Shown here: positions 16,796 to 64,000 of the stretch, piece by piece | Numbering within the stretch: position 1 is the stretch's first letter | How the letters are laid out: the number at the start of each line of letters is the position of its first letter | Source of the DNA: Marsupella aquatica | Lineage: Eukaryota; Plantae; Marchantiophyta | Assembly: GCA_973895155.1 (NCBI GenBank) | Contig: OZ316892.1 | Span: forward strand, 5,426,476 to 5,490,475 | Length of the DNA: 64,000 nucleotides | Direction of reading: 5' to 3' | Position numbers and translations under genes: made by a program | Notes under the pieces: model-generated | What the model was told of the DNA's origin: nothing | The model's input: the letters and a program-made list of their open reading frames with translations, nothing else | Database searches by the model: none

Positions 16796-16797
16796 GG

Positions 16798-17691
16798 TTG
16801 CAATTCCTAGAGTGGCGAGTCTCGAAGCGAATCGAGACGATCTGATGTGTGGGCGTGGGTGACCGACAGTGAAGCTCAACGAGGTGGTGATGGACGGATT
16901 GAGAGAGAGCAAGAGAGAGGAAAAACCCCACGACAGTACAGGACGATGTGGAATTGTTAAACCTTGGAAAGAAGTGCAAAAGTGACTATTGTGAAAAAGA
17001 CCCTACAAGTCAAGGGCCTCTCAAAGCTCCAAATTGATGGACCTTAACTTAACTAGGAGTTAAAGAATATATAGGATAAGGTCAGACAAAGCTTTGGACT
17101 ACTAAATTCATAATCCATTATTTATTTTTCCAAATAGATTGGTTATATGCCATGACCATGAGTCACTTGCAATTCTTAGAGTAGCGAGTCTCAAAGCGAA
17201 TCAAGACAATCTTATGTGGGTGACCGACAGTATCAACTAGGTGGGGTTGAATGGATTGAGAGAGAGCGAGAGAGGAAAAATCCCATGACAGTACATGTCT
17301 ATGTGGAATTGTTAAACCTTGGAAGGAAGTGCAAAAGTGACTATTGTGAAAAAGACCCTAGTAAAGTGCCTCTCAAAGCTTCAAATTGATGGACCTTTAA
17401 CTTAAGCCACCATTGGCATTATAAAATAAGGAGAAGTGTCAAAGACTTCTTACTTTTTCACTTTCTCCTCTAATGTGAGATTTTGCTCCACAATTTCAGG
17501 AAAAAGTACTAAAAATGGTGCATTTGGTGTAACCAGGTTATGCTCTTTAACTCACTTTGCTTCAAATTGATGGACCTTAACTTAACTCGGAGTAAGGAAT
17601 AGAATAAGGTCAGACAAAGCTTTGGACTACTGAATTCATAATCCATAATTTTTTTCCATAAAGATTGGTTACATGCCATGACCATAAATCA
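16798..17691. repeat. Tandem duplication of the ClpP4 5'UTR/promoter (~370-bp unit)
   Basis: 16798-17166 is repeated at 17167-17405 and continues at ~17560-17691 after a short intervening segment. Confidence 0.85.
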
Positions 17692-20107: not shown

Positions 20108-20350
20108 CAATTTGATAACACTTTAATCCACTTTTTTGATTTTGTGAAAACTGCCCAATTCACTAACACCTTAGTCCAGTTATTTCTTGATTTTGTAACA
20201 AAAGCCCCAATTTACTAACATCTTAATCCAGCTTTTTGAAAAAGGCCCACTTTACTAACACAATAATTAATCCAGTTTTTGATTTTTTGAAAAAGGCCCA
20301 ATTTACTAACCTCCCAATCCAGTTTTTTGATGATTTGAAAAATGTCTAAT
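20108..20350. repeat. Degenerate ~45-55 bp tandem array (ccaatttactaacaccttaatccagttttttgatttt...)
   Basis: About five units here, plus further units at 17911-17976 and 25541-25575, separated by the LINE and by the 20351-25540 insertion. Confidence 0.75.
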
Positions 20351-29664: not shown

Positions 29665-32600
29665 TCACTGCCGTAACAAATTAGCCCGGTTTGCTTCCCT
29701 TTGACATTTTTGGCAAACCCAGAAGCACGTCCGTTTTGTCCCTGACAGATATCTGGAGAGCATCTTAGATTTGTATTGCACTTGATAAAGTTGGAATGTC
29801 TTTGAGATTTGTCCTTGCGCCTTCAAGGGTGCCATCAGGTCCTGAACAAATATCAAATCCGAGTTATGAACAAATCACCCCACTTAACGATCAAACCAGC
29901 TCAATCTAACAATGAGATGGTGTTAGTTTCCTCCTTCAATCTGGTAGATTTGAAGTTAGCGAGCCTACGATCATGCCTAGCCTGTCGGAAACATTGAGAG
30001 CATCCCAACGGGTTTGGTGGCCAAGCCTCCCCAGATCATGCAGAGAAAAGTGTTCATTCCAAGAATTAAATTTCCAAGCCGCTATGATTGAAAGTCGACA
30101 ACCCCACCAAGTCCCTCCAAGCTGACCTCCATTCCAGAAATTGTGCATTCATACTTTCTAATTGGTCTCGGTCGTGGACCATGGCGGGTTGGCGACCGCT
30201 ATTCTTGCTAATACTGAGGGTCGGCAGCTTGGATCTGGCGTGTCTGTCGGTCTGTGAACGACACAAGGGGTACTGGTGGGAAACGCAACAGCAAAGGTTT
30301 CTCTCCATTTGGTTTGTTTGGCGGTTCAGAGGCCAGGCGAAAAGGTGCACTGGTGTAGAAGCTCGAACAAATCTAAAACTGAGTGCAAGAAGGATTTGAA
30401 TTAGAGAGGGGCAAAATAGAGTCTCTTGACCTGTATAATTCCCCATGCCTCTGCCAGAGTACTGTCAACTTCAACTTGGTTGCAATCTACAATGGAAGTC
30501 TTGATGTTGTATATGATATTAGCTCCGGTCAAAGTCGTAGCAACCAGTGGCGCAGCTCCAGCCCACGATGAAAAGTGTGGGATTGCACTGCCGATACCAG
30601 CAGCAACATGAAGCCCAACCTTCGCCAGAATGAACAAGATCTTGAGAGAGCCCAATACAAGGGGCCTCAGCTTTTTGTATGTGTCCCTGACAGGGAGTTC
30701 AAGCACAGATTCAGAAATTTTGATGCGAGATTAAGCTCATCTATAATTCGGACTGGTCACTGCTGATAAAATTGCGGCTGACTTCTGAGATTTGCCTTAG
30801 TTTGAAGAACTCATTTTCACTAGAGAAGATAATCATCTTAGTTTAGACACGTACTGGCAACTCAAATTAAACTTCAGAACAAAAAACTTCCCCTATGAGT
30901 CAGAACCCAACTGTCAAGGAATTCTTTGATATAAAACTTTTAACTTTAGTCTGTCCAATTGAGATGTATAATCGGATTTGGTCCTGGCACCCAAATTATA
31001 TGTTGTACTTTTGAAAGTTACTGCTAACACACTTCAGGACGTAACTTTTCGATTTTCAGCAGTACTACAGTAGCTGTATCTTTGCCCGTAAATTCTTTTT
31101 GTTATGGAATAAAACTCGAAGGGAAGTAAGTGCAAGTGCTTAATTACCCCGGCAACAAGTTGACCAAGGGCAGACCCTGCTGATCCTTGACATAGTGAGG
31201 TTGGTTTGGACTTTCGCACATGAAATGCAGCTTGATAGGTACTCCGATTTGCAAGACAGCCACGAACCGTTGTTTCAAGCTCACGGAGTTGTCTAAAAAG
31301 TAAGGCAACCCGGGCATATCCTGCAACTCTGCGACGGACCCCATGAGTTCGTCCATTTTCTCCACCAGAGTGCTTTGCATCTTTTGGTGGAGCATCTGCA
31401 TATCATCCAAGCTCGCCGCAATATGTGACAAAAGTTTCGTCTGTTCCTCAATCTTCGAAATGACGACGTCCTGCATTTCTCTCAACTGCCTTGAAAGGGG
31501 TACTCTAATTTCCTGTAGTGGGCATCGCAGTCGCACAAATTAATGCCCACGAAGAATTTAGAATGTAGATATCATCCGGAGGCTGGAAAAAAGGAAAAGG
31601 ACTGATCATCATACAATCTAAAGACTTACAGAATGTCGCTCATGAAAATGTGAATTCACGATCGTACCCAAATCACGCGTCATAAAGTGGACACATGCGA
31701 GAAACTATTTAGATGCTGAAATTAAGTTTAAGTGGTTCAAGACAGGTAAGTAAATATTGGCATCTATACACAGTCTGGGCACTCAAAGTGAGGAAGTGAC
31801 TCGGTACATGAGTAGTGCTTACATTGACATACCAACGCCACGCGTCCGGCCCGTCAGGTGGCCCCTCTGGTTCTTCCGATTCACCAGCTGATTGCACAGG
31901 CTGCGATGTCGTTCTGGACGTAGACGGCACTTCAGCGCCAGTAACGTTCTGGACCTCATCAACGGCTTGAAAAAGGCCATATCGCTGTTCACTAATCGTG
32001 ACTCTGTACTTGAAAATAGCTTCTTTTACGTCTAGGAGAGTTAGCATTTGCATCGCCTCGACCCACTCTCCTCTAACAAGGTACTCGTCCTCTGGCACAG
32101 CGGGAAAGAAGTGCCTGTAAATCCTTGACATATCTTGCACGGAATTGGCGTACGAGCCGTCGTCCCAAACTTCCAATTCAACCGACTCAAAGAGTTTTTC
32201 CATCACGGCTTTCGTCAAGTCCTCCTTCAGGACTGCCTGGTTCTTCCTGTGACAGCACAAGGACAGCCTCTCGACGCACTGCGGCCTCAGGATTGCCTCT
32301 TGCAGCGCCACACCTGGGCAGCCCTCTCGAGACGCGCAGAACAGTCGTAGCTGCTCCACAAGATTGGTGACTAGTAAGTGTGAACCTCGTGCCTGGCTGC
32401 AGGACTTCACTAGAATATCCACATAATCTCCGTCGAGAAGACCGTCATCTCCACTCTTCTCCATGAGTATCTCAAGTCCATCGTGCTGCACTATAATCAG
32501 ATTTTTCTCAATCTTGTATATCAACTGCAATTTTGGGCCGCGCAAAAACTTCTGTAGATAGACCTGAAGGTACGGTTCAACACAAGCCTCGTTAATTAAG

Positions 32601-35600
32601 CAAACTTAAAACTCTTAGTGCGTTGATGAACAAACACACCATTCAATTGATTTGAAGGAATGGTCTACGTACGTGCATCTAGCTGGCAAAACAGTCTTCA
32701 GCTGACAGGAAGCAGCAGTAATCCAAGCAATTCACTCAAAGGGTGATTCGATAATATGTCGTCGAGTTCCAGGATCAAAGGTCGCAGCAATAAGCAGGAA
32801 AGAAGAAATGAAATATAGCTACCTGAAACCTTTGGAAAAAGCCAGAGGTTAGGAACGTTCGTGATTGATCCGTGCACTGCAATCGAAGACCACTATAGAT
32901 TGGACGGTTTGACGTTTTGCTGTCGTCCACCGGCCATGATAGCCTCCGTCTGCCTCGGCGAGCCAGGCCGTTGGGGTCGTCGAGAGTGCTTGGAACGAAA
33001 TATGAACAGGTTGGAGGATCAGTTCTCAAGTCTTCTTCGTAGCAGAGTTCCAGCTCCTTCATGAGTCGTATCAAGTCCCCGGCTTTGAATCCACGATAGC
33101 TCCTTCTCTGAATGAAATCCTCCAAGACTTCCATTAGTTTATGGTGAGATAAGCACCCATTTTTGATGTTATGAATGAATGGCTCATAACTTTCATCTCC
33201 TGGCCTAAACAACTCTCCCAAGAAAACCTTACCTAGCCAATTCGGGTCCACTACAACAAAGGACGAATTCGGGAAGTGAATGATGGAACCCACGTCATGC
33301 AAATAAGATGCTACAGCTAGCTCGTTCTTTTTGCGATACGCTGTTCTCATTTCCTGTTCTTCACTGGCAATTTCTGCCGGGACATCTCGAAATAGTACAT
33401 CTAGTTCCTTCATCTCCTTACAAAGATCGAAAAACTTCTCTTGTGTAATGATCGGATAAAAGCTGTGGTTTCTCTTAGCGGTCCACTTTGCCAAGAAAAG
33501 ATTCATCTCCTCGCAAGCAGCAGGTACTTTTGGAAGGGTTGATGAGAATAAAGAATCGAAACTTTCGAGAACATCATCGACAACTTCACGAGCATGTCGG
33601 GCTGACCAGGAATTGATAGCGTGAACCTTAGCGTTAAGGTCCACACGACCTTCGAAGACTCTACTCAATTTATGCACCTGCCCCGTCGTTCTCGCCCACT
33701 CGATGTACCTTTCCTTCCGATTTGACTCAATATTCCCAAACCGTCTGGACAGTTTGTCCAAATGGGTCAACACGATCGAAACTCGTGGTAGTATCCATCC
33801 AGTTTTCCTGCAATTTGAGGTTATGAAACCGAGCCAATAACACAGCTCCTTTTCCAAATATTGGGCTGATTTCTCCTCATCCCAACTACCGTTCTCATTG
33901 AAGACAGGTTTGTTCAGAAATAGGAACACGCAGGCCTGATTAATGTCGGGAAACATGTAATGGCTGTCGTGCAAAGCATGGTACTCATCCTGTCCGGCCA
34001 TATCCCAAACAGCAATATGTTTATCTGTGGAATCTCTCAAGAGCCGTATCTCGATCCCTTGCGTTCTTCTGTCGAAGTAAGATGGGCAAAAACAACTTTG
34101 ATTGGCCATGCACGCTGTTGCTTCAAATATTGATCGGTTGATAGCATTCCCCTGCGTGCCAACCATGGACCTTCGAAGAGTGGTCTTACCTGCACAATGC
34201 ATGCGAGTGCTGCCTTTAATCATCCTCTCATGCTGGCCGGGTACATGGATCCGAAGTGCAATTGACATTGTAGTGTATTCCGGTGTTTTCATTTCCAAAA
34301 AATGATACATCACTCAACCAAACTAAACCAACTATAACGTCATTTTATTGATTTAAAGAAAAAAATTAGAAATTTTGTGAAAAAAAATTAAAAAATTAAA
34401 ATCGAAATTCGAGACTCCATAGCACGTCATGTCATCATGACACTTTTCAAACAAATATGAATTTGTTTACAAAATAAAATTATTTCATTGTTCTTGTTTG
34501 TGGCAAGATTTTGGTAAAACTGAGGACACCATGCCGTAAATCTTGATGTAAAAATATTTGAATGTTTGAAAAATAATAGTTTTATTTACCCTAGGTAACA
34601 AACTGTTCAATTAGTAGAAGGCCCACTTTCCGTGTTTTTTACCCTGAGTAACCGCTGCCCACCCGTATTTTGAATTGTATTTCAATTGAATAATACTAAT
34701 TGTCTCTCGGCAAGTTGATCTGATGACAAAGTAATCGTGGTAATTTTCTTGACATTCGGCTGCCACGAAGGAAGAAGTGGACATGATTCTATGTTGGATC
34801 ACTCAACACTCCTTTCCATGTCATCATTGCAGTTCCTAACTCAGTGATGCCTCTCGTTACTGTTATATTGTCCAACACATGAGGCACGAGCGAACGAAAG
34901 AGAAGCAAGCTTAGCAGGGTTCACTAAGGGTCTCGTTTACGTGCAGATGGTGTTGAAGAGCCTGGGCATGAAAGAAGGACATAGTTATAAGAAATGTCAG
35001 CATATGATCAAGGGAGTCTATGCAGACGATAATGGGAAGGTGGACTTTCAGGAGTTCAAGGGGTCCATGAACTAATTTAAGATTTATAAGTATATTAGAG
35101 TCCGATTTTAAAAATATTTTAAAATAATCCCAAAAATATTTTAACTTTATAAGGATTTTTTTTCTTTTCTTATACTTTAGGGGATTGATACTAATAACTT
35201 GGTGATGGAGAGATTCATATAATGAGACCCCCAACAGTGTATTCTAGCTTGGCCTAACCAAGACCTCCCATTACTGAGTGACAAAACCTCCACGTAATAA
35301 CTACATTCAATTAGTGCAGACCATTTGACCATCTGCCTACGTAGAGACGACGACAACAACAGCAAATGCTGGCACCCAGCTGTCATGAATTATGTCATTC
35401 AAAGGTGCTTCATTAGGACTTGAATATCAGAATGCCAAAACTCTGGACTAACGAAACTCAACTGTATCAGGTTCAGGTACCGTCCTGTGGCGACCTGCAG
35501 CTCCAGGAACCACCATGACACTTTCGCAAGTAAACATTGAAGAGCTATCTAGAGAAACCAACCAAAAGAAAGATCATCAAAGATTTATTTTCAAGTTGAG

Positions 35601-36923
35601 AGTTGAAAACTGACCATCTTAACCGCCTACAGTACATTTTGTTATATATACAATGAGACGTCAGGAGAGAGAAACATAAATCAAGGACTCGCAATTTCCG
35701 AACTTTGGGAGGTATATAGTAAACTACATGTTGTATTGGATAGGAGGGAAAGGACGTCCTTAATAACAATAATATCCTCAGACAGTCTCATTGACATTCT
35801 CATTGATATCCGATTGGACGAAAACGTAGAAACGACGATACGTTGCAGACGCTGGGCGTTACTTACCTGCTCGTGGGAATCCACAAAGGAAAAGGCGTCC
35901 AATCTTGGGTGGGACAAATTGCAATTTGTTCTGTAAGGTGCCGAAGTAATCCGCCAGCCTCTCGTTCCGTCGAAGCTGCTGTTTGAGTAGCGCAGACTGC
36001 CCACTGTTATCCAGTGGTGTTCCCGCCATGTCAATGGAATTAATTTTCCTATTTGCTTGGAGAAGTTCCATAAGATCGACGAAGGCATCGCCAAGCCCTG
36101 GTCCGCAGCGGTACAGATCCATCTTTTCCACCATATGGTTGTCTTTCAGTGCCTCCCAAACCTTGCTCCATTGCGCACGATCGAACTGGAAGGATCGCAT
36201 TCCAAGAGACTTCAAGGAGCTGTTGTGAGTGAGCATTTGCACGAGATTTTCTGCTATTCCCTTCTCATACTCGTAATTCATACTGAATCCTTCGAGAGTT
36301 GTATTGTAATTCTCATCTTGGTGTAAACGTTGCTCGAAGGTGAACAGATCAACCGGTGTGAGGGCTTTCAACAAATAAGTCAGCGGCCCCTCTTGATCGG
36401 GGTGAGAGTTGCCATATCCGACTCCACATGCCAAGTGACGCAGTGTCGTGTTCTTTGACAAAGCCCTGGCCACGGGAACTGTCTCTTCTGCAGTCCATCC
36501 TGGACCCCACATGCCGAGAAACTTTAAGCTTGGGATGTTGTGCAACAGAAGCTCCTCCACCAGCTCAGCCCCTCTCTTTCCGAGTTTGATGTTTGAACCA
36601 ATCTCTAGCGTGGAAAGTACTGAATGGGGATTCTCAAGCAACCCCCTGATGATATACGACAGGCCATCGCCATCCATGCCAACTCCATAGACCGAAAGCT
36701 TCTCGAGGGTCGTGCTTCTCCTCACAAGTTCCCCTAGCAACTTACAGCTCTCGACAGACCCGAAATATGAGCTGTTATCCAGAGACACGGAACGCAGCAC
36801 GGAACGCAGCGGGTTGAACTTTACGTGCTCGAGGAACAATTTGCACTCTGCGTCATTTTGCTCATTGTCTTCCAAAGAATGTTTTCCACCGTTACTTCTT
36901 ATCTGCTCTACCAAATCCTCCAT
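29665..36923 (-). CDS. TORNADO1-like LRR-Roc-COR (Roco) protein, ~1320 aa; exons 36923-35867, 34189-32823, 32563-31823, 31512-31148, 30686-30431, 29841-29665
   Basis: RI-like LRRs (NTTLRHL, NSSLKSL). P-loop GFPRAG|KTT split by intron 1, RRTQGIEI, VWDMAGQ, VLTHLD. COR-type YLHDVGSIIHF...VVVDPNWLG. TRN1-like tail LHFMCE...H and WVCQKC. The six GT-AG exons sum to 3963 nt in frame. Confidence 0.88.
34944..35075 (+). pseudogene. Calmodulin-like (CML) C-terminal EF-hand fragment inside a degenerate MITE in intron 1 of the Roco gene
   Basis: Translates QMVLKSLGMKEGHSYKKCQHMIKGVYADDNGKVDFQEFKGSMN*, matching the plant CML pattern (VL.SLG.K.G....C..MI..VD.DG.G.V.F.EFK.MM). Followed by the family-B MITE end at 35076-35235. 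Confidence 0.7.
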
Positions 36924-37718
36924 GATGTTACTACCTTCGCTTCTGTGACGGCTGGACCAAATCAGATCTGCAGACAGTCAGGGGGCTGGATCAAATCGAA
37001 CAGCCCCGAACCCTCCACGAATGCAATTGATCATAAGAAAATAAGAAAAAACGACTTACGGTGGCACAACTTGTGCCAGAGCAATGCCTAATTGCTGCGT
37101 GAAAATTGACTAAGACCCAAACTAAGACAGGCTTCCTTATCCATCCGTCTGGGGTTCTAACCCAGCTCCGGGATCAAGGTACTTCCCCGTTTGACATCGC
37201 TAACTGTTTGTCGCAGTCGATCGATGACAAAACTATCCAATCCTAGAGAGGTTTCAACTCGATGGAAAACGACACGACACCATTGAAAGCAGCTGTATGA
37301 TTCTAGCAAGACCAACGTATTCGATCCAGTGATATGCAAAGCGATGAACCGACCGAACGACAGAGAACGACGGACCTCTATATACTAACTTATGGAGCTC
37401 TCGAAAAAATTGATCTACGGTGGAACACTGGAACTAGATGGATCGAACCGCCGCCGGTCGAGCCCTCACAGACCCGATCGAGCCCTCATAGATCGGGAAT
37501 GATTTTCTCCTATCCGGCTACCGAGTGAAAAGATAATAAAAATAAAATATAGATACTGCGACTTTTCTTACAATCTTAGTAAATTGCCACCAAAGTTACT
37601 CTCTCCCTGTCTACAGAAAGGACTACACTAGATGCTGTGACTTTTCTTCCCAAATTGGGAAGTTGCCACCCAGTTCACTCAACTCCCTTTTTCCCTGACC
37701 TACACTTTTGGGGGTCTC

Positions 37719-42690: not shown

Positions 42691-45600
42691 TCATTGCATT
42701 TGAATGATTCGTCTTGTTTGTACAGGGAGAGTACTATTTGCCAATAACGCAAAGTTATACGCATAAACGACAATTTTTGCTAGGGACAATTCATCCTCCA
42801 GTACTTTGTTAGACAAAGCCTCTTTCTCCGGATAATATCTGCCTTCAATTGCAGACTCCTCTTCCGAATCCATTGCATACCAAGTAATTTTAATTCGCTC
42901 CGGGATGTCGTTAATTTTTGTGAGAATCTCAGTCACTTTTGTCATCCAGAATGGTCTTCCCTTTGGATCCTGATGGGCTGCTACACATATCATTGCAAAT
43001 TTAGTATTCACCTCTAGATCCTTGAAGTCTCCAATTTCCGTGACTTTTTGCCAACTTCTATACATGACTGTCCTCACACCCGCTATTTTATCAACCAAGA
43101 TAGGTTCCATTGCTGCTTTTGTAGGATTGGTCGTAGGTTCACTCTCTACGCTTACCTTGGGCCAACTCCAATCAAAACTCCAATGTGCGGGTTTCAGGTG
43201 GGATGGATCACTTCTTGTTGTTTGTCAAAAAAACAACCCCACCATATATAGCCGATCTTCATCGTCAAGTAATTGAATCCATCTTCAATTGCTCTCCAAT
43301 ACTTTTGAAGAGTCGAAAAATGATTTTGAGCTGCCCACTCATCTTGTTCCTTAGTATCATTCTCTTGCTCATCATTGTCTCCTATCGCTCTCGTGGCCAA
43401 CTTCAATGCCATTTGTGGTGCGACCCACATTCCAGATGAAGGAATGTCTAGAACAAATTTCACGAGCTCTCCCCAATCTGTTGTCGTGAAAAGATGTTTG
43501 GCGTGGAAGACAGACCGAGCACTTCCATCTTCAAGTACTCTTGTAATCCAAAATTGTTTCTGAGCACTTATATATGCCATGGAGAGTACGCAGGACCTGA
43601 CCATCCATATCTTTGTCATTTGCTTGATCCTTGTCAGACACAAATTTTTTGAAATTGGCAACCTCATCGACAAAAAATATCTTTGCCATAGGATTGTAGG
43701 ATTCCTCTATGATTGCGGAAAGAGTGTCCAACCAAAAAGTTTTTTGCTTGTTCAATTTTGAAGAAAACTTGCTAAATATTTGATCAATTTGATCATGGGT
43801 GTGCCCCACCAACACAAAACCAACCTTTATTTTTTGGAAAACACCTATCTCCACCAACATGTTCAAATATGCCATAAGATATTTATTCTTGTTTTCTCGA
43901 GCAGTGTTATCAAGCTGGAGGTACAGCACTGGAGGGAGCGGACCTTCCCAGGTATTTAGAATATGCTGAATAACGTGGATGGGCAAGTTGCTATCATTGT
44001 GAATATTTGGATAGTTCAAAAAAACATTTGAACTTAATTGTTTGTTGAAGATCAGACAACCCACTACGTGTACAGGGATGAAATACTTTTCATCCATATT
44101 CTTCGGACACCAAATGAAATGAGGTAACTCTGTCTTCTTTTGATCCATTCCATCAATACAGATGCCCAAATATTTCTCCGGACTCTTATAACATTTGCTC
44201 CGGTGCTTTGCTTACTTCTCCCTCTCCACTGCTTGTGCCTTCTGATGCTCGTTTAGCAATGTTGAGAATTTTCCTACAATAATAAAAAGGTTTAGGACTT
44301 TGCTGGCCTGACAGCGATAAATTTATCGGGTTCAGTATTCAAACACGATAACAGTAATGTTAAACCGTGACAGCGATAAATTTATCGGGATTAGTATTCA
44401 AACTGTTCAAACGATATATTCACACACATTACCAAAGAAGAAGCATGGAAATACTCAACCCAATAAAATAATCGGGAGTAACACACGGGTTTAGAAACTT
44501 ACTCTTATTTGCTTCAAGTGTTGCCTTGTCACGGAGTGCTTTGAATTTAGTACACGGGGCACAGGTGAAAAAACAACTCCTTTTGGGGATGCGCATGCGA
44601 GGAAACTCCTTGTTCCAAATGCAAACAAACCATGAATATGTCACGCCTTGTTCTTGGCGCATTAGAGTTTCAGATTGGAAGGTATCAAAAACTTTTGTTT
44701 TTGTCCAATTGTCAGGTAAATGAAAGATAATCTTGTTGGGGAGACTCTCTACATTTGTGGTAAAAAAATCATCTAGCCACTTAATGAGACCAAGATGTGC
44801 GGACAATTTTTCTCTACAAAATGTATTGATCTGTATCTGAGAAAACATGTTCTTTGAGATTTTTTGGAGATGATTATTTCCTAGTGAAAATAATTTCTTA
44901 AAACCACTCCAACAAAAGGATCTACCGCTAACTGAGTAACCGCTTGCACCGGCATGCCAACCCTTCACACATCCTTTTAGAAGTACATTCTTCTCTTGGT
45001 AGGATAGCCCATAGTAATATGTGCGTTGTTTTGTCACGTCTTGCAGACCCAAATTCCTTAGACAAAAATTATCACAACAGGGATACTTATAAATTTCTCC
45101 CATGATTTTGTTTCTATTCAAATTATCGTTTATGACATTGTCTTTCCTAGTAATTCGGTCTCTATCTTTTTCACTAGGCTCATTTGACTTCTCTATAGCC
45201 TGAAATCCGTTGATAACATTAACATTTTTGGGTCCTTTAGGTACCTCGCGAATAGATGCATCACTCTTTGCTGAGCTACCATCCTCCATAGATCTCCTTG
45301 ACGCATTCAGAGGGGCACTGAAAAGGCGACTATAACTATTCTCTTCTACAACTCCTTCTAAACATTCAGACACAACTTGTGCTATGATATCGGATTCTCT
45401 ATCTCCTTCCTGATCTTCGTCCTCTGATCCACTCTACTCATTTGAAAACACAATTGAACTCTGTGGCTCTCTATACATAACCCGAACGCCACTAAGACCT
45501 CTCTGCGACACTTGGAGCCTGGAACCAATCATAGTCTGCCCTGGAGAACTTGGAGATTCTGGATTCACACATGCAGTCTCAACGCCTCCGCGAGCTGCAA

Positions 45601-51077: not shown

Positions 51078-53130
51078 TATTGTTACAGACCTGTGAGGAT
51101 TCTCTTTTAAAATTTTCTAGCACATGGTTGCACCATGTTAACTCTTAGTTCCATCACAAACACAAATGGTGAAAATGAGCTCCAACAACCCATGTGAGAG
51201 AACATTACTAGTTTACTCACAACCATAAAAGGCAGGGCCCGTCCACAACCTAATTTTCATGTTACTCAAATACTAACAATAGCATCCTAAGATCTGGGCC
51301 TAACATGCATCAACAGAGAATTTTAACTACAAGTTCATTATTGCAAACCTGTTTGGGCTGAGATTTATTATGTTGGTGTAACCTAGCTTGGGACCTGGCT
51401 ATGTTGTCCAAAATAATTTTTAAGAAAAATGGATATATCTCAAAAACCATTTATGACCCGCATCAAACAAATCAGATGAAAGAAATTGAAATGAAAGTAA
51501 CACAAACTGGAAAAAGTGAGTTAGGATTTAGGGACAATAGAAAAAAACTAAAACTAAGTGGACGATTAGGGTGGGCAAGGAGTGGGAAGGTTTCAGATTC
51601 ATTTGCAACTTTTGGTCTAGTTGGGCTTTTGTTGTGCTTTAACCACTGTCTAATTGGTTTCACTTTTGTTGAGTATTAGTTTAGGATTAGCCACCAATTA
51701 CTTGAACTTGGTAAGTTAATTGACTGCATGGATTGAAGTCTAAATTGAGACACCATGGTAATTGTTCTACTTACATAAATTGCATGGAATATCCAGCAAA
51801 GGAGGTTGGCAAATACAAAGACGGGAACCACTAATTCATTCAATCTTCTTATGCATGTTACAATACTATACTATATAAGGTTTTGGAATGAATATTATTC
51901 TACCCAGTTGGGCACCTTCTTGGTATTGGCAAATTAAGCATGGTCCCACTCACTCTCCTAAACCTCAAAATAAAAAGGATTGGGGATCACCTTAAATCCC
52001 AAGAGTACGTAGGTGATTTATTTTCTGTAGTTTGTGATTCAAACTGGCAAATGCCTCAAAGGTCTAGGAGGGAAAAGATCGATGTGGGACCCATCTAATA
52101 TACACTTATAAATTAGGTGTTGTATTTGGTATCAAATTGTGTATTCCTATTATTTTTCTTTGTATCATTTCACCAGGAACTGAAGAAGGAAAAATTTGTA
52201 TACCTAATAAAAATATTTAGAGTGCTTATAAGACACTTTTTTTTTTGGTAGGCTCAGATAGAAGACTGTACTCGTGGACGACTCTAACTTAGTTTGCGCT
52301 GTTGAGACACTTTAGGGATAACTTCAGCACAAAGTTTTCCCCTCGTTGCTACTTTTCATGTACTAAATTCGCTTGATTTGTACTTCGATCACACGGATTA
52401 CAAGTGTTCCTTGTGAGATCAAACCATGTGCTTAATACGACTCCTACAAAGCTACCAAAGAAGGCCGCGTCATCAGCCGAGGTCATCAACCCATCATCGA
52501 ATCTATTTACTACCCGTACAGAGCGAGGCCCCCAAAGAATGGAGACGAAGGTGGGGGAGAGGCCGGGAATCAAGGACCGTCTTCGATCGAGTTTCTACAG
52601 CCAAGCATCTCCAAGTAGGCGCGGCAACCAGGTCCAATTGACAGTCACTACCAGCGTGTCGGACGAGTCCAACGGGGAGTAGAATGATCCACTATTCTAC
52701 TCTTTACGGTAGATATTTCAATTTGAAACTAGACTTCCGATCGAAATGTGCTTTATGTTCCATATAGGTAGCCCACAAGGGCAGCAGGATCTAGATTGTG
52801 CCCACGAGAGGATTGCCGCCCGTCTGAAAAGGAAGAACACCCGCTTGACACTTAGAACTCGCTTTGGTCTCCTCTTTACTCGACTCCTTCCTGTGGAAAC
52901 TCCGTTCAGTGCGGGTCAGAATGTTTCAGAATATAGGCGGGCACTGATCGGAGGGTTCTAAGGTTATTCGATATACACTACTGCGGAGCTGGGTGCCGGG
53001 GCTGGGTGCCAAGGTGGCCATTTGTTTGTAGAAACGGTGGTAGGACAGCAGTACGTGGTTCGACTGGGTTTGCTTCACCCTCCGTATTAGGAACGGTAGC
53101 ATTTCTCGGAACCGTCTCTTTGACAAGACC

Positions 53131-55488
53131 ATGTATGTAGATATGGCTTCGATAAATCGAGGATTGCTGCTGACTCTAGCAATACTGTATCTTACTGTTT
53201 CTCTTCAAGGGGGCTTGTGTAGCGCTGATTCAGGGTCATGTACAAATGTGCCCTGCAGCTCTGGCCTCTGCTGCAGTCAATTTGACTTTTGCGGCCCTTT
53301 TGACAGCTACTGCGGAATTGGGTGCCGCAGTGGCCCTTGTTACGCCAATTCTAGTGGTTCATTCGGATCGTGTTTAAATCAGTTCTGTGCCGATGGATTC
53401 TGCTGCAGTGCCTCGTACTACTGTGGTAACAATTCCAGATATTGCGGAGTAGGTTGCCAAGATGGACCGTGTAATAGCAATTCAGGTGGTACAAGTCTGA
53501 ACAGCACTGGTGCGACTACCGGATTGGCGTTTGCCTTTGTGCTAGGGACTATAACATTACTTGGGAATGTCTTCTCTACCACACCCAGGCGAGTACGCGG
53601 CTCTTCGAGAAGTCGAGGATGGTTTCTAACCTTCGGACTGCTATACATTATGGTTTCGCTGCAGATGGGCTTGAGTAGAGCTGATACAGGATCTTGTATA
53701 AATCAGGCCTGTGGCTCTGGCTTCTGCTGCAGCCAGAATCTCTATTGTGGTCAAGGTGACAGCTATTGCGGACTCGGGTGCCGAGGTGGTGCTTGTACTA
53801 ATAACTTTTACAATACTTCAGGATTATGTGTGAATCGGGCATGTGCTGCTGGATTCTGCTGCAATTTGAATTATGTTTGTGGCTCTAATGGCAGCGATTG
53901 CGGAGACGGGTGCCAAGGTGGCGCTTGTTACAGCAATTCAGGTGCTACAGCTCTGGGCAGTATTGCGAATCCTTGGTTTGCTCGAACCTCCGTGGTAGGG
54001 ACAATAACATTGCTTGTGGCAGCCCTCTCCGACAAGCCGATTCGGGTAGGCGTCTGTTCGAGGAATCAAGGATGGCTGCTTACCTTAGCACTGCTTTGTC
54101 TCATGGTTTCGCTGCAGGTGGGGTCGAGTAGAGCTGATAACCCTACCGCAGTCGGAATGTGTACAAATAAAAGATGTCCCCGCACTGGCGACTGTTGCAG
54201 TTCCGACAACTATTGTGGTCCTGACTCCAGGTATTGCGGAGCCGGGTGCCAAAGTGGCCCTTGTCACTCCAATTCAGGAGGGAAAATTCGGGGCACTGGT
54301 GCGATTTTCGGAATCGCTGTGGGCTCCGTGGTTGGGGTTCTGATGCTGAGGGCCTGTGTCGACTTTGCGGCTCGGCGGCGTGCGCAAAGCACCAAAAAGG
54401 GCCAGATCATTGCGGGACAGAGCATTGGCAACGCAAGGGATGGTCGTCTGGATATCACATTTTCCAGTCCATGGAGGAGATTTGGACTTGAAGAGTTGCA
54501 CTCGGCTACCGAGGGGTTTAGTGAGGAGCTTGGGAAAGGAGCGTTCGGGATTGTTTACAAAGGAGTTCTTAGAAATGGGAAGGAAATAGCCGCCAAGAAG
54601 ATGACCACTAGTCAAGCGGTTGTGAAGGGCTTTGAGGCGGAGGTGAAGACTCTTGGAAGCATCAATCATGCAAATTTGGTGCAGCTTCTTGGGTTCACCC
54701 ACGACCTAAATGAGCTGTATCTGGTCTACGAATTTGTGGCCAAAAAATCTCTGGATTATTGGATATTCGAGAAAAAGAAATCTAACAAAGACTTCGTGTT
54801 GACTTGGAATAGAAGAGTCACCATTCTCAAAGGGACCGCCAAGGGCCTAGCTTATCTCCACGAAGATCTCCAGGGTGGGAAGGCTATAGTTCATCTTGAC
54901 ATCAAACCTCAAAATATTCTCCTTACTGAATTCTACGTACCCAAGATAGCAGATTTTGGATTGGCGAAGCTGCTGGGATCGGACACAACTAAAGGAACCC
55001 TCATTGCTTCTCCAGGGACAATAGGTTATACGGCTCCTGAAGTTCTTCATGTAGCAACAGTCAACCCGAAGCTGGATGTCTACAGCTTCGGCATGGTACT
55101 GCTCGTGGTGGTGGCCGGTCGAGACTATGTTGATAGCTCCTTGGACTTCGATAGGTTCTACTTGCCTGCATGGGCCATTCGGAAATTCAAACGAGGAGAA
55201 GAACTGGAGGTTGTTGACCCTCTCTTACGAGATGATAGACGTGAATTTAGCCAGGTAGATGTGAATTTAGCCAGTACATTCATTCGGATAGGTCTTTTGT
55301 GCTTACAACGAGATCCAAACAAGAGACCTGCAATGAGCACGGTGTTAAGCATGATGGAGGATTTTAATAAGCATCCGGACCTGCCCCCGGATTTGCAATC
55401 AGAGTTGGAGATGATCGAAAGAGAATTTCGCCCGAGACGAAATACGATATTCTCAGATAACTCTACAGAACGCCTACGAGCGTATTGA
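53131..55488 (+). CDS. Intronless receptor-like kinase with five hevein (chitin-binding type 1) domains in three SP-hevein-anchor modules; non-RD kinase (start probably ATG 53143)
   Basis: Five 8-Cys CCSxxxxCGxxxxYCGxGCQxGxC-type repeats. TM AIFGIAVGSVVGVLML then RRR. Kinase motifs LGKGAFGIVYKG, IAAKK, HANLVQLLG, IVHLDIKPQN, DFG, GTIGYTAPE, DVYSFG, CLQRDPNKRP. Confidence 0.92.
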   Translation: MYVDMASINRGLLLTLAILYLTVSLQGGLCSADSGSCTNVPCSSGLCCSQFDFCGPFDSYCGIGCRSGPCYANSSGSFGSCLNQFCADGFCCSASYYCGNNSRYCGVGCQDGPCNSNSGGTSLNSTGATTGLAFAFVLGTITLLGNVFSTTPRRVRGSSRSRGWFLTFGLLYIMVSLQMGLSRADTGSCINQACGSGFCCSQNLYCGQGDSYCGLGCRGGACTNNFYNTSGLCVNRACAAGFCCNLNYVCGSNGSDCGDGCQGGACYSNSGATALGSIANPWFARTSVVGTITLLVAALSDKPIRVGVCSRNQGWLLTLALLCLMVSLQVGSSRADNPTAVGMCTNKRCPRTGDCCSSDNYCGPDSRYCGAGCQSGPCHSNSGGKIRGTGAIFGIAVGSVVGVLMLRACVDFAARRRAQSTKKGQIIAGQSIGNARDGRLDITFSSPWRRFGLEELHSATEGFSEELGKGAFGIVYKGVLRNGKEIAAKKMTTSQAVVKGFEAEVKTLGSINHANLVQLLGFTHDLNELYLVYEFVAKKSLDYWIFEKKKSNKDFVLTWNRRVTILKGTAKGLAYLHEDLQGGKAIVHLDIKPQNILLTEFYVPKIADFGLAKLLGSDTTKGTLIASPGTIGYTAPEVLHVATVNPKLDVYSFGMVLLVVVAGRDYVDSSLDFDRFYLPAWAIRKFKRGEELEVVDPLLRDDRREFSQVDVNLASTFIRIGLLCLQRDPNKRPAMSTVLSMMEDFNKHPDLPPDLQSELEMIEREFRPRRNTIFSDNSTERLRAY

Positions 55489-55784
55489 CAGCTCCCGTTT
55501 GATGGCATGGCACACAGGTTTCAGAGATTGTGAAGTTGTACGACAGCCAATGTCAGAGCGTCGTTTCCGTCATCGATGAAGATTGCAGGACTCAAAAAGG
55601 AAAATTAACCTGAGATTGGCAAGACTGAGGAGTCTGAAGAAACAGTGCGTATATAGGAAGACCCTAGGCCTCGACTTAAACGTACTGCATTCGGTGCGTG
55701 TGATGTACATATTTATCATCCATGGGAATTTCTGTCTGTCTCCCTTGATGAGTTTAGCTTCACATATGCATATGATATAATTAA

Positions 55785-55911
55785 TCCATGTACCCCATGT
55801 TATTCTAGAAACTGAACCCTAGATGAACCTCCAAATCCAAAGAAAAATAAATTCAAAATCCATGTACCCCATGTTATTCTAGAAACTGAACCCTAGATGA
55901 ACCTCCAAATC
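55785..55911. repeat. Direct duplication (~54 bp) downstream of the RLK
   Basis: atccatgtaccccatgttattctagaaactgaaccctagatgaacctccaaatc occurs at 55785 and 55858. Confidence 0.85.
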
Positions 55912-57315: not shown

Positions 57316-58750
57316 TGTTGAGCATAGACGACGATTGCAACGGCAAGCCCATGAACCATCCAACGCACAATAGTTGACACAAAGAAATACGTGGTTCACC
57401 TCCACATGAGGCTACGTCCACGGGAACACACGAGAGCTTTACTGCACTCTAGGCCGACCGGCCATACCAAGCATCCACAGCACAAGCTCTCCCTATCTCT
57501 CAACTGGCTCCGTAACAATGAGCCTGAGTTCCACCTCTCCAAGCAAACACCGTTTGGTTATAGAGTGTGCACAGCATGACTAACCTAACCAAGTCTGTGA
57601 CTAAGGTTAGGCTTAACTACGGTACATTCGTAACTCTAGACCTAAGAGTAAATCCTAACAATCTCCCCCTTGACTCTGGTCTAGGGGAGGGTAAAGACTG
57701 CTACCAATATGACTGCTCAGCGGGAAGTTCTGGAAAGAAAAACCAAACCGGTTTTTCCCTCTTTATACAAGAGTAGACCAAAACTAAGTCGTAGCCTATA
57801 CAAGGAATGAGCAAGAGCATATCTCAGTATCTACACAAATGTTAAGTAACCCTACTTGTGAGGCAATTGCAAAACCTGCAACGCATCACGGTGTCTAGAA
57901 AAACTTTCCAAATGAATCACTTTGGTAAAAGCGTCAGCCGGGTTGAGTTTACCGTCAATCTTGACTAGCTCAAACATATTATCAGACACAGTCTGCCTGA
58001 TAAAATGGTACCTAACGTCGATGTGCTTCACTCTGTTGTCCATCACCTGGTTCACAGCAAGGTGGAGTGCACTCTGACTATCACAATGGAGCTTCACATT
58101 CCCCTGTGGCAATCCCATCTTAGTGATAAGTCTATCCAACCAAATCGCTTCCTTTGCTGCTTCCGCTGCTGCAACATACTCCACTTTTGTAGTAGACTGA
58201 GCAATACACTTCTGCAAAGTAGACCTCCAACTTATGCATCCACCTCCAAGTGTGAACACATAACCTGTTGTTGAACTCCTCCGATCCAGATCATGTGCAT
58301 AGTCAACATCTACATAGCCCATCAATGATCTAGCATTACTAGCATGTGCATCAAACAATAGACCATGATCCACGGTACCCTTCAAATACCTAATAATCCA
58401 CTTCACTACTTCCCAATGTACCTTCCTTGGATTCGACATGTACTTGCTCACCTTGCCCATAGCCATGGCAAGATCAGGTCTAGTGCAAGTCATGAAATAC
58501 ATGAGACTCCCCACTGCCTTGTCATACGGAACCTTTGACATCAACCCCTTCTCTGTGTCATCCGTAGGACAGAACGCTGATGATAACTTGAAGTGTGGAG
58601 CCAATGGGGTACTTACTGGCTTGCTATTCCCCATGTTGAACCTTGCAATTACCTTCCTCGCATAACTGCTCTGCGTCAACCATAGCTTGCCAGCCTCCAA
58701 GTCCCTAGTGATCTCCATACCCAAAATCCTCTTAGTTGGCCCTAAGTCCT
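57316..58750 (-). mobile_element. Ty1/Copia 3' portion: RT-RNase H (57852-58750), PPT, 3' LTR (57316-57660)
   Basis: KDLGPTKRILGMEI, VGSLMYFMTCTRPDL, ISWRS, LHCDSQSA, KHIDVRYHFIR, NPADAFTK. PPT aagggggagat abuts the LTR TGTTAG...CAACA. Cut at 58751 by the Gypsy. Confidence 0.93.
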
Positions 58751-61700
58751 TGTAAACGATAAAAATTACACCGGCGATATTATAGTTTTTTTTAGGTTTA
58801 GAAGTGTCAACTAGAGGTCAACCAAGAGTATTTAGGAAGTAGTAAGCAAGGACCAGTGGTTATTCATTTTGTTGAGATGACAGAAAGGCTGGAAGTAGGG
58901 GAGGCGACCATCATCTCGATTAACGGTCGTGTAGGAGTCAAGTTCTGCTATGAAGGCTGCGATGGCCTACTAGCAGATGGCAGAGTATGTGCCTTAGGCA
59001 CAAGAGCTCAACAGAAAAGGCAAGGGGGGGCGGATATAGGAACCCCGTTAGCAGGAATCGGTTAGCTCATGAGTGTAAGTCGCTAGGCAAAGGAGTGCCT
59101 ATGTTCATGTTCACTATTCGGATCAAAGAAGGAATCTGTCGTGTATGGGATGCGGCTAGGTAACAATTGTTCGGAATGAAGGGCGAAGAGTTCCGCCAAC
59201 GATTCACCACCGGCGAGGCCATCGAGGAACTCTGCAGAAAGGTCATGCGGAAGAAATGGAATCTGCTGCTAAGACGGGAGAACAACCACGATCAGCGGAT
59301 TACGTGGCGATTAATCACCACCGAACAAGTAATCATGGCCGGCGAACCGAGCAACCCCAAGGAAGATGACAGAAGTCAGGAGGTCGAGGCACATATGGCA
59401 AGATTAACAATCGGGAGTCCAGAAGCTTCCGGATCAGGCGCAACCGAAGGGAATCGAGGAGGCCGTTGCCTAGTTCAGTAACCAGGAAGACAGAACTTCT
59501 TGACATAGTAATCAGCAGTTCTTGGCTTCCACTCATCGTTCTGGTAGGCATTAGTTAGCGTTCTTGGTGAATGAGCGGAGGAGAGCAAAGAGGAGGCGCG
59601 AGTCGCCCAATTGTAATCGGCGCACCCCAAGAAGTAGTAGAGGCCTCGGGCGAAGATAGACGCGGGGTAAAGGTATTTAGGGGCTTTGAAGTACTAGTCA
59701 CGGTGTCACTTTTTGCTAGAAGTCTGGGGCAAGGTAAGGCTCCGCTCACCTTAGGAATGCCAGCAATTTTGTAATAGTGTCCCTACTCAGTTGAGTAGTC
59801 TTTGAGTATAAAGAGAGAGTTTGGAATGAATGCAACAGAGTGAAGTCCGCACTTGAGCAGTGAATGAGAACATCGAATCAGAGAGAGAGAGAGAGAGAGA
59901 GAGAAGGAATTTGCCTTATGCAGCAAGTCGTTACTCGTTAATCGCAACGATGAATGAATATCGTCTCATTGCGAACCAGAACCTTACGGGCCAGCGCCTC
60001 AAGGTATAGGTTGAACAGATAGCTAGTGAGAAGCGGTGTCTGGTTGGAGATAGTGTGTTTTGAAGGCGATATACTGGTCGTCATACACCTCCATCATACA
60101 AGGGTAAACGTGATACTGGGGTACTTGCTTAGGGTAACCCTGTCATAGTCTGAACCCACACAATCCAGAAATCAATTGCCAGGCAGGCTGATTCAAAGGA
60201 CAGCCGGACTTAATCAGGTCACGGCTACTACAAACCATGAATGCAAACAGCAGTGACGACAAGTCTTGCTCCTTGATTACCTTAAGATCACTAGAACTGT
60301 GGATCTGTTCTATCAGCACCCATCTTATTTCCCGTCAGTTACTATACAAGAACATTCCGATTTGCTTGATCACTTACCGCGAGTGGTGTGGGTTCATTGA
60401 GATTGTGTATAGAGAGGGGTTAGTGTTGGCCAAGGCTGAAGTGCCTGAGAAGTGGAAGACGGAACTCGACATTCAAGAGCACTTGGTCGGATTCACTTAC
60501 GGGGACTGTGTCGAGATAGAAGGAGTGCCGCCTCTCGCAGGTCGGTTAATCGTTTAAATGAGATTACTGAGGAGAAGGTAGTTAAACGGCCATTAATCGC
60601 AAGGTCAAAGTTGGCGTTTAACATTTTTGGCGACCATACTGGGGAACGCCTCGTTGAGGGTTCCGAAAGAGGAGCAACTGCTACGACCAGCAGTCCGAAC
60701 CAAGAGAGAAACGCGCAAATCCAGAAAGGCGAACGGGTGACATGAACTCGCCGAAGGAGTTCTAGACGATGTTCTATTTTGAGAAGGATGCCAAAGCAGC
60801 AATCATAGCAACACTGAACGAGAAAGAGCACTCGATACTAGCCAGCGGGAGAAGTAGGGCACGAGAAGGCGATGTTATGATAATTGCTTACACCACGCCC
60901 ACACACACAAAGTTGGTACTTCGAGAAGCGCATGGAGGAACCTGGAACGTGAGGAGGCGAGCAATTCATTTGCAATCCTCTGTTCGGAGCAGCGTTTACA
61001 GCAGCGACCATGCCACCAAGTGATCGATTACCTCAAGGCTACACGCAGTACCGCCTACCCAAGAGAAAGGAGGACCTTAGAAAACTCTTAGAATGGTGTC
61101 ATTGGAATCGAAATGAGTACCCGGTTGCTATAGCATTCTAGATAGGCAGAATCGCTAGGAAATTAAGTTCTAAACTAGAGGAAACCGCAGGAGCTTGCCC
61201 AAGATGTATGATGTGGAGTCAACATGACAGTTTTGAGTTTTCTATGTTAAACCAGTTATTAACGATGTGCTTTAACGAGGAACTCATGGCTCCAGAAGCC
61301 TGCACTCCTAGTTTAAGCGAATAGGAGTCATTTCGCAGAGGGCAAAGGAGAGAGAGGAACTGATTAACAGAAGTTATAGCATTAGTCAAGTAAAGGAGAC
61401 AGTAGAAGGTCTCCGTTTTTGTGAATCAGGTAGGAACAAGCAAACAAGATGGGGATAGGATGGAGAGTAGTCAGGGATATTACAATCCGGATCGTAATGC
61501 AAACCGAAGGCCCTATAAGGATGGTGGTACTAAATACCCACCAATTTGCTATTACTGTCGACTAACTGGCCACATCAGGGGGCCCGATTGTGAATTATGG
61601 ATGAAGCACATGAAAGAAAAAGAAGAAATAGCGGGGAAAGCCCCAGCACCTGTGAATACTGTGCAGGTGTCAACATACGTGGTGACAAGATCTCAAGGGC

Positions 61701-64000
61701 AGCCAGAGAACTCAACCCAAACCAATTCCCCGGAGACTGAGGGAGGATTCGATTGGAGCCAAATGGATGCAACCACCCAAGAAATGGCGGATGAAATTCG
61801 CCACAAACAGCGGAACGAGACCTTGCCACGACCTGAACGATTAATGCGTTCAGAACCTTACGCGGAGACAGATACGGAAATTCTAGAGGAGGGAGTGACG
61901 ATGGGGGGATTCGATCAAGAAATGGGACAACTCCCACGAGACGAAGAACCACCGAATAACCCTGCCGAAGCGAACCAGCGAATAGTGGATAAGCTAGTGC
62001 AACTCATCGCGAAGACCAGAGTCGACATCACTATCGAGGAACTGTTCCAGTTAGCACCACAGTGCAAGGAAGCAGTAATGAGACGGTTGGGAGGCAGAAT
62101 TAGTCCTACCACATTACCCGGAGTACCACTGTACCAAGCTGGGAAGATTCCCCTAATCGACAAAGGAGCCGTAGTACAGATCAGCGTAAGGGGCATCAAA
62201 CTAAAGAACGTATTGCTGGATGGAGGGTCAGCCGTAAACCTCATGAGTGAGCAGACCTACAGACTGCTAGGCAGAGTCAAACTCTTACCAGCCCCTTTTA
62301 ATTTAATAATGGCCGATCAAAGCAGCTGTCACCCACTGGGTTACGTGCCAGACTTACCAATGCTGATTTCAGGCATCAAGTACAATTTAGGAGTGGTAGT
62401 TTTGAGAGAAGCAGATTCCACCCGAGGACAACCCATGTTGTTAGGATGACCTTGGCTAAGACAGGCCAAAGTAAAACAACACTGGGGGGAAGAGAAGGAT
62501 TATATAAAAATAGAACACGGAGGAGAGACTTTCAAGATCAGAACCAAGGCTATTGAGGATGGTGTACCACCTATGGCCAGAGTCTGTACCTTGAACTGGG
62601 CAGAGGGGTTGAATGAGGATGAAGAAGAGACCTATTTAAAATGCCATCTAGACTTAGTCCCAATTTCAGATATGGAAATAGTCAAGCTCGACGAGATGCA
62701 AGGAATGACCAAAGAAAAAATGGATCATGATCTACGAAACGATCTGTTTAAACACATAGACCCGCAAGGCATTCAGGAGTGCTCATTAAAGGAGGAAGAA
62801 GCACAGACCACCTTGCAGGATCTAGCAGAGAAAGTGGTGGGATGGAGTGCCACCGAGGAAGAGCACATTCAGAAGGTCGATTTGAGTGACACTGAACGAC
62901 CACGAGAAGTAAAGATAGGGAAACACCTTTCCCCCGAGCTCAAAGAGGAACTTGTTACCCTACTCGCCGAATTCCGAGATGTTTTTGCCTGGGATTACAC
63001 GGAGTTAAAGGGAGTTCCAGAGTCAATTGGCGTACATCGAATCCGACTCATACCAGGATCAGTACCGGTGCAGACACAACGATATAGGATGAACCCCAAC
63101 TATGCGGAAAAGGTAAAAGAAGAAATCCAAAGGCTCCTTGATGCCAAATTCATTGAACCTGTTAAGCGTTATACGTGGCTATCCCCAATAGTCGTAGTAC
63201 CTAAGAAAAATGGGAAGTTAAGAGTCTGCATTGATTTCAGAAAATTAAACGCAGCGACCATAAAAGACCCTTTCCCGGTACCCTTTCTAGACGCAGTTCT
63301 GGATGTGGTAGCAGGAAAGTCAACTTATTCATTTTTAGATGGGTACAGTGGGTACAGTCAGGTCCGGTTAGCAACAGAAGCAAGGGAGCTAACCACTTTC
63401 ATTACGGAATGGGGCGCTTTCCAGTGTCTCGTATTACCCTTTGGATTATGCAATGGGCCTAGTACATTCCAGCGATTAATGATGATGTTATTTCATGAGT
63501 ATTTGAATCAGTTTATGCAAATCTTCCTAGATGACTTCACCATATACGGAGAGGAAGAGCAACATATAGGTCATCTCAGATTATGCCTCTTAAGATGTAG
63601 GGAAGGGGGAGTCAGCCTGAACCCTGATAAGTGCACCTTCTTTGTACCATCGGGCAGGATATTAGGACACATAGTCTGTAAACAGGGCTTGTTAGTAGAC
63701 CAAGATAAGATAAAAATCATTAAAGAGATGCCAGTTCCCAATAGTGCAACCCAAGTCAGAAGGTTCCTGGGAAGTGGAGGTTTTTACCGTCGTTACATCA
63801 AGGGGTACTCCCAAATCAGTGCCCCGTTGGCACGATTAACGGATAACCATCAAACGTTCACTTGGGACGACGACTATCAAAACGCGTTTGAAGAAATCAA
63901 AGACCGGTTGTGCCATGCACCCATACTCAAGGAGCCAGATTGGAAGAGGGAGTTCCATCTACATACAGATGCTTCTCTGGTGGCGGTGGGGGCAGTGTTA
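58751..64000 (+). mobile_element. Ty3/Gypsy element nested in the Copia RT: 5' LTR ~58751-60623, PBS ~60628-60645, gag zinc knuckle, protease, RT, start of RNase H (runs off window)
   Basis: tgtaaacg...cgtttaaca then tggcgaccatactgggga. CYYCRLTGHIRGPDC, LLDGGSAVN, WLSPIVVVPKKNGKLRVCIDFRKLN, LPFGLCNGP, IFLDDF, HTDAS. In-frame TGA at 62447-62449 and a degraded gag. Confidence 0.92.

Follow-up and report, generated by a model that had tools for sequence, protein, structure and literature searches.

Plant receptor kinases have, to our knowledge, been assumed to be single-pass proteins with one signal peptide (SP), their co-receptors coming from separate genes. Glycosylphosphatidylinositol (GPI) anchoring has been shown for LysM receptor-like proteins, and the glycoprotein precursors of bunyaviruses and flaviviruses contain hairpins of a transmembrane (TM) helix, a loop, and an internal signal that are cut by host signal peptidase. 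In mammals, IGSF1 undergoes co-translational cleavage at an internal signal, and its upstream piece stays in the endoplasmic reticulum (ER) (PMC5841168). Kinase-less tethered chitin binders beside receptor kinases are exemplified by rice CEBiP with OsCERK1 and by Arabidopsis LYM2 (10.1101/2022.12.28.521631), architectures combining hevein and kinase domains are known in Marchantiaceae and ferns, for which the excerpted text makes no mention of internal signals (PMC6362431), and a rare internal MYXO-CTERM motif is mentioned in PMC11980579. Here, we analyzed a window of 64,000 nucleotides from the liverwort Marsupella aquatica (assembly GCA_973895155.1, contig OZ316892.1, positions 5,426,476 to 5,490,475 of the forward strand), in which the open reading frame (ORF) 53131-55488 on the + strand, the strand of all features of this gene given below, encodes a hevein receptor kinase with two further SPs inside its chain. 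An earlier note on this sequence had proposed a signal-peptidase polyprotein and regarded internal SP processing as typical of viruses; viral precursors do provide examples, but IGSF1 places such processing in cellular proteins as well. The architecture is real and partly conserved, and apparently undescribed, and with somewhat better than even confidence we read the sequence as predicting that signal peptidase would release two anchored dihevein lectins and one receptor kinase from the chain.

The encoded protein (P0001) has 785 aa, corresponding to 785 codons without the stop, and its order is SP, two hevein domains, anchor, and loop, then the same series again, then SP, one hevein domain, TM helix, and kinase. 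Pfam detects Chitin_bind_1 (E 1.3e-13) and Pkinase (E 2.4e-42). In module 1, signal peptide 1 (aa 1-32, 53131..53226) precedes hevein domains 1 and 2 (53239..53472, placed by Pfam and cysteine pattern), anchor 1 (aa 131-148, 53521..53574), a predicted membrane helix with a KD19 value of 1.61, and basic loop 1 (aa 149-162, 53575..53616), predicted to be cytosolic, with 5 K/R and 0 D/E. Module 2 opens with internal signal peptide 2 (53617..53682), with a predicted cut after Ala184 and Asp following, and continues with hevein domains 3 and 4 (53695..53928, placed by comparison with the relative P0129 introduced below), a weaker anchor 2 recognized by hydropathy (aa 281-299, 53971..54027), and basic loop 2 (aa 300-313, 54028..54069), again predicted cytosolic, with 3 K/R and 1 D/E. 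Internal signal peptide 3 (54070..54135), which matches the signals of Calypogeia kinases and has a predicted cut after Ala335, also before Asp, leads into hevein domain 5 as the ectodomain of the receptor kinase (54160..54264, Pfam and homology), a short receptor TM helix (aa 390-406, 54298..54348, hydropathy and relatives), and a Ser/Thr kinase domain (54520..55350, Pfam and motifs) with GxGxFG, Lys489, a non-RD HLD, DFG, and APE. Each junction combines a predicted stop-transfer helix, a short loop predicted to be cytosolic, and an internal signal with small residues at -3/-1, anchor 2 being marginal. With three SPs and three anchors or TM helices, P0001 departs from the single-SP, single-pass design of its family, which only its third piece would have after cleavage. 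All peptides quoted in the earlier note were located where it had placed them, and its description held for the SP recurring twice internally with an intact -3/-1 site (copies ending at 53682, aa 184, and 54135, aa 335), for the hydrophobic stretch and basic loop ahead of each copy, and for a frame open throughout with the catalytic motifs of the kinase present, HLD replacing HRD.

A single contig of run X1, which may itself be the source of the window, spans 52106-55812 with 0 differences and no break or join, and contigs of a further organism (organism B) from two runs cross junction 1 (53365-53797 and 53366-53686) and junction 2 (53887-54134 and 53887-54114). We therefore rejected an assembly artefact, given the single contig over the gene and the organism B contigs over both junctions. 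At the DNA level, the modules are diverged repeat families that recur every 453-456 nt and share 71-72% identity over 183-194 nt, and these repeats are not a product of chance. Initiation at an ATG of module 2 or 3, which would have undone the proposal of the earlier note, was likewise rejected: Met is absent in frame between aa 5 and 174, and before signal 3 occurs only at 174 and 179, both inside signal 2, leaving either internal signal without an upstream in-frame ATG. An AlphaFold model of the junction had a mean pLDDT of 51 and was not used as evidence.

The architecture recurs in Calypogeia fissa, where P0129 (CAM6083354.1, 312 aa) was the top match of a junction-plus-hevein profile in two databases and supplies the relative with repeated SP-hevein-anchor modules for which the earlier note had called, covering modules 1 and 2 without the kinase. 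It consists of a signal, two hevein domains, an anchor, a loop, a second signal, two hevein domains, an anchor, and a stop, is colinear with window aa 12-295 (165/301 identical, 55%), and begins at the position of window Met5 (53143). Identity amounts to 17/23 in signal 1, 12/18 in anchor 1, 4/14 in loop 1, 14/23 in signal 2, and 6/15 in anchor 2, compared to 11/26, 12/26, 16/26, and 15/26 at the non-Cys positions of hevein domains 1 to 4, so that the internal anchor 1 and signal 2 are at least as well kept as the non-Cys hevein positions. The best-kept part of signal 2 is the c-region with the -3/-1 site (8/10 residues identical), and Ser or Cys at -3 with Ala at -1 is found in all 10 signal copies of 7 proteins, 4 of them internal to junctions. 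The sequence type of signal 3 is the sole SP of the Calypogeia kinase models P0002, P0007, P0008, and P0123. Module by module, the window is most similar to the corresponding part of the Calypogeia proteins (65%, 67%, and 72%), although the module tree has little resolution (1/9 branches starred). P0129 keeps a Met inside its junction, lacks a kinase, and ends after the second anchor in a 17-residue hydrophobic tail behind a Gly/Ser-rich spacer; its accession stands immediately before that of kinase P0008 (CAM6083355.1), both lie on a 66.6 Mb contig, and we infer the adjacency and strand of the genes. A third species contributes P0005, whose kinase is preceded in frame by a hevein tail, anchor, loop, and signal. 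The arrangement has been kept under selection as junction 1 in P0129 and, in degraded form, as the pre-kinase junction in P0005.

Of 275 proteins compared, 148 match the hevein pattern; 6 of these have a hydrophobic stretch between hevein domains, and an anchor-plus-signal pair there is confined to P0001 and P0129, P0130, P0145, P0190, and P0268 having the stretch without the pair. Searching 1.84 billion representatives with the profile gave 446 matches at E<=0.001, and among the 150 of these listed, the junction was strongly matched only by P0129 and the input proteins. Scanning metagenome contigs gave 16 loci, 15 of which match the hevein part only, while L002 (37%) reaches residue 52. No description of P0129 was found in the literature searched.

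A paralog is present in record 2 of run X1 (3115 nt; also in X2, X3, and X4), covering window 53124-53514 and 53654-53706. Its signal and two hevein domains match module 1 with 65 differences over 391 nt, an unmatched stretch of 138 nt follows, and similarity resumes at the end of signal 2, its junction being nearly equal in length to that of the window. A loose end of X3 at 53706 suggests that the next hevein domain of this paralog may lack the double cysteine. Contig depth over 53600-55315 is ~2-4x that of the flanks in X2-X4 and flat in X1; depth here is not a copy number, and the raised values possibly reflect near-identical extra copies.

Selection on the internal segments was estimated from comparisons between modules. 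Among the three signal copies of the window, dN/dS was 0.30-0.41 over 24 codons (0.35-0.41 for signal 2 against the others), and hevein pairs gave 0.20-0.83, all within the window and from small samples. In a neutral simulation of 304 module codons, an open frame with all 32 cysteines was kept in 17/3000 runs at 0.05 changes per site and in 0/3000 at 0.1, well below the uncorrected synonymous divergence between modules of ~0.3-0.5; a recent neutral duplication was rejected on this basis. The same contrast implies that hevein domains 3 and 4 have been selected as disulfide-bonded lumenal domains, for which signal 2 must work. As judged from these codon comparisons, the internal signals are under constraint at the protein level.

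We propose that translocation would proceed in alternating steps, and that predicted cuts after Ala32, Ala184, and Ala335 would give pieces of 152, 151, and 450 residues, with expected masses of ~16, 15, and 50 kDa, respectively, if unglycosylated. Signal 1 would open translocation of hevein domains 1 and 2 in the standard manner, anchor 1 would halt transfer and leave basic loop 1 in the cytosol, and signal 2 would re-open translocation and be cut after Ala184, as topology parity and the conserved -3/-1 site suggest; anchor 2 and signal 3 would act likewise, with a cut after Ala335. Since the disulfides of hevein domains 3 to 5 require the lumen, the anchors must stop transfer and the internal signals re-open it. 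Signal peptide peptidase may then trim off the used signal that remains on each lectin, a step reported for IGSF1. Alternatively, the anchor might be exchanged for GPI, which, given cleavage, we hold to be a possible but minority outcome: an internally placed GPI signal was processed in COS cells (PMC2288913), making such an exchange possible, and the window anchors are internal and TM-derived. The SNSG linker, read in the earlier note as resembling an omega site, is no evidence for a GPI site, because it also precedes the true TM helix in P0001 and in single-module relatives. In speculation, the tethered lectins might act as co-receptors of the non-RD kinase and capture GlcNAc or chitin next to it, like LysM receptor-like proteins beside LysM kinases.

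Several observations weigh against this processing scheme. (i) Topology was derived from homology and from hydropathy scales. (ii) Cleavage efficiency drops with a longer n-region (PMC13578380), in corin, basic residues on the cytosolic side prevent cleavage by signal peptidase (PMC11756421), and both window loops are basic. (iii) The upstream piece of IGSF1 is retained in the ER. (iv) Intact modules are fused to a kinase only in the lineage of the window; the upstream hevein of P0005 is broken and its anchor weak, and Calypogeia has a two-module protein that terminates with its anchor, alongside distinct kinase models whose initial Met lies within the anchor. Fixed stoichiometry between lectins and kinase, as envisaged in the earlier note, would follow from the single ORF of the window but is not conserved in Calypogeia, where both are separate gene models. 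(v) In Marchantia, losing either of the LysM receptors MpLYK1 or MpLYR abolishes the response to chitin (10.1101/2022.12.28.521631), so the hevein kinase family is not the known chitin sensor.

Point (ii) leaves some room for the internal signals to insert as helices and stay uncut or poorly cut, giving a five-pass receptor that holds three extracellular lectin modules together, since long n-regions and cytosolic basic residues lower cleavage. Topology parity is satisfied equally by an uncut chain, and conservation of the hevein cysteines requires lumenal placement alone, not cleavage. Yet it is the c-region with its -3/-1 site that is best kept between the window and P0129, the hydrophobic core of the internal signal has remained short, and the separate existence of P0129, ending at its anchor, and of the Calypogeia kinases indicates that the pieces are viable on their own. 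We regard the five-pass receptor as unlikely, though the foremost of the alternatives.

A slightly less probable alternative, likewise unlikely, accepts cleavage but assigns importance to the last piece alone: the upstream modules would be passengers that either stay in the ER or are degraded, as with the N-terminal part of IGSF1, or the gene would be decaying in this lineage. Signs of decay do exist, and they too count against a functional receptor set: anchor 2 contains Arg285, the receptor TM helix is short, with Arg407 and Asp411 near it where relatives are hydrophobic, P0005 has lost its upstream module, and directly before the ATG lies a dead, indel-broken module 0 (52889..53130) recognized through repeat families D5, D6, and D8 and comprising a hevein end, linker, anchor, and loop. 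Anchor and loop have a dN/dS of 0.54-0.82 within the window, again from small samples, and 12/14 translated in-ORF differences to organism B are non-synonymous (from 40 of 276 listed, some perhaps belonging to paralogs). Against decay, all 40 hevein cysteines are intact, the closeness of every module to its Calypogeia counterpart persists, in Calypogeia, the two lectin modules survive as a separate protein, and organism B indels inside modules are multiples of three (12 of 36 listed). Organism B has Leu for Arg285 and the Trp of the family for Ser310.

The last alternative, that the junctions are spliced out or bypassed by internal transcription starts to leave an ordinary five-hevein or single-hevein receptor kinase, is improbable: phase-1 GT at 53486 and 53942 and phase-1 AG ends at 53689 and 54151 would allow frame-preserving introns of 204 nt (53486-53689) and 210 nt (53942-54151), junction-free multi-hevein kinases occur in Marchantia, and Calypogeia retains a Met inside the junction, but the stretches that would be removed show cross-species conservation of their protein sequence and third-position bias, four junction copies of differing lengths are all in frame and stop-free, pyrimidines upstream of both acceptors are below 60%, the P0129 gene model retains the junction, and the window codons at the position of the Calypogeia Met are ATA.

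The eight-cysteine hevein pattern is intact in 5/5 domains, and the best match among solved structures is WGA (E 1.3e-16). Sugar-binding positions, which we take from hevein numbering to be a Ser and three aromatics, are complete in only one of the five domains, hevein 1, one aromatic being absent in hevein 2, 3, and 5, and hevein 4 (53827-53928) having none of the four presumed residues in the window and P0129 alike. Chitin binding by domain 1 is accordingly plausible from its sequence, and would be weaker for domains 2, 3, and 5. Hevein 4 is otherwise conserved between the window and P0129 (23/34); conservation without binding residues is a pattern hinting at a non-lectin role. Window hevein 1 is nearer to hevein 2 of P0129 (12 non-Cys matches) than to its hevein 1 (8), suggesting a domain swap or conversion inside module 1.

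The junctions most likely arose, to judge from DNA and protein similarity, by in-frame tandem duplication of the 5' part of the gene from the start codon to mid-TM, and would consist of half a TM helix, now the first half of the anchor, joined to the old N-terminus, now its second half. Resemblance of the anchor DNA to the receptor TM helix was equaled in 0/2000 codon shuffles for anchor 1 and 4/2000 for anchor 2 (p=0.002), while SP controls in the same test gave p=0.054 and 0.36. The Calypogeia kinases begin at a Met where the window has an ATA codon (Ile), and their N-terminus corresponds to the second half of the anchor plus the loop. The N-terminus of P0006 is similar in register to P0007, P0008, and the P0129 junction (p ~0.009), and its similarity to P0002 and P0123 was not significant. 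DNA of module 0 gave local scores of 101.5 against junction 2 and 80.5 against junction 1, with maxima of 57.5 and 59.5, respectively, in 200 shuffles each; four organism B substitutions fall within 53096-53121 of this module. After the duplication, modules may have been gained and lost at the 5' end of the gene, and the final anchor of P0129 resembles a junction truncated by a stop codon, suggesting that the longer, fused form came first.

By its kinase and ectodomain, though not by its topology, P0001 is a liverwort hevein receptor kinase, a placement made by sequence comparison: it has a hevein ectodomain, a TM helix, if a short one, and a cytosolic kinase with catalytic motifs. HLD replaces HRD in the window kinase and in 14/15 checked relatives, the 15th having NLD, and all are non-RD. 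Such non-RD kinases are typical of immune receptors. The nearest single-kinase matches are liverwort proteins (Calypogeia fissa, Marchantia, and Riccia) and two Logan proteins, and angiosperm tandem-kinase proteins rank among the nearest matches by summed score. The Marchantia members of the family are named MpRLK-Pelle_SD-2b. In a tree of 25 kinase domains selected from the matches (the window, 17 liverwort-type relatives, and 7 G-type kinases), the window kinase, P0005, and four Calypogeia kinases form a six-row clade (98/96), which contains all junction-bearing kinases and is sister to P0006 (96/94). This clade lies within an 18-row liverwort hevein clade (100/100), whose sister is formed by G-type SD2 kinases.

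Elsewhere in the window, Nramp metal transporter exons (9703-12105, +), a single-frame Clp protease subunit gene (15797-17002, -), and pieces of a Roc-COR gene (31709-36977, -; Roc E 4.9e-05, COR-A E 5.7e-10), presumably TORNADO1-like and with an LRR-like frame upstream, were identified. Transposon remains comprise a LINE-type zf-RVT element (18267-20159, -), a DUF7869 element (42691-45433, -), a copia-type RVT_2 frame (57852-58817, -), and a gag/protease-like frame with no Pfam match (61406-62449, +), and high-copy repeats begin at ~55780.

In the literature searched, with most subscription journals outside its scope, we found neither the junction nor any polyprotein containing a plant receptor kinase described. 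Such genes may be listed in the supplements to PMC6362431 and to the genome preprint for Calypogeia (10.1101/2025.04.01.646537), which lay outside that search. We tentatively propose a leafy-liverwort receptor clade in which a single mRNA would give rise, through cleavage by signal peptidase, to a hevein receptor kinase together with two tethered hevein co-receptors that are possibly GPI-linked, the junction being a reusable cassette that adds and sheds modules and later splits off as a gene of its own, as in Calypogeia. If true, this would imply that chitin can be sensed without LysM receptors and that receptor-like proteins can arise directly from receptor kinases, with partial gene duplication as a source of the kinase-less forms. 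A conserved anchor-plus-signal junction would add co-translational cleavage to the ways of building a receptor set, and the two predicted new N-termini make the cleavage reading exactly and cheaply testable. The locus further draws attention to a liverwort family of hevein-based receptors that is unstudied, and genes of this design would be overlooked or shortened by annotation pipelines.

Among known systems, P0129 has two signal-hevein-anchor modules that parallel modules 1 and 2 of the window up to and including the non-binding fourth domain. With the liverwort hevein receptor-like kinases, among them Marchantia polymorpha MpRLK-Pelle_SD-2b and SD-2b6 (P0015 and P0016) and Calypogeia CAM6083360.1 and CAM6083355.1, P0001 shares the hevein ectodomain, TM helix, and non-RD kinase, the kinase identity being 59-66%; these models have at most one SP and one TM helix, whereas P0001 adds two in-frame anchor-loop-signal junctions. 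The LysM pairs would be functional analogues, differing in that they use LysM instead of hevein domains and are encoded by separate genes. The bunyavirus and flavivirus precursors are viral and unrelated, whereas the units in the window are duplicated parts of one host gene. IGSF1 differs in its Ig domains, its one internal cut, its lack of a kinase, and its unrelated sequence, yet it is a cellular protein with an internal signal cleaved by signal peptidase, as is predicted from sequence for the window, and the Marsupella gene would be the second natural cellular example beside it.

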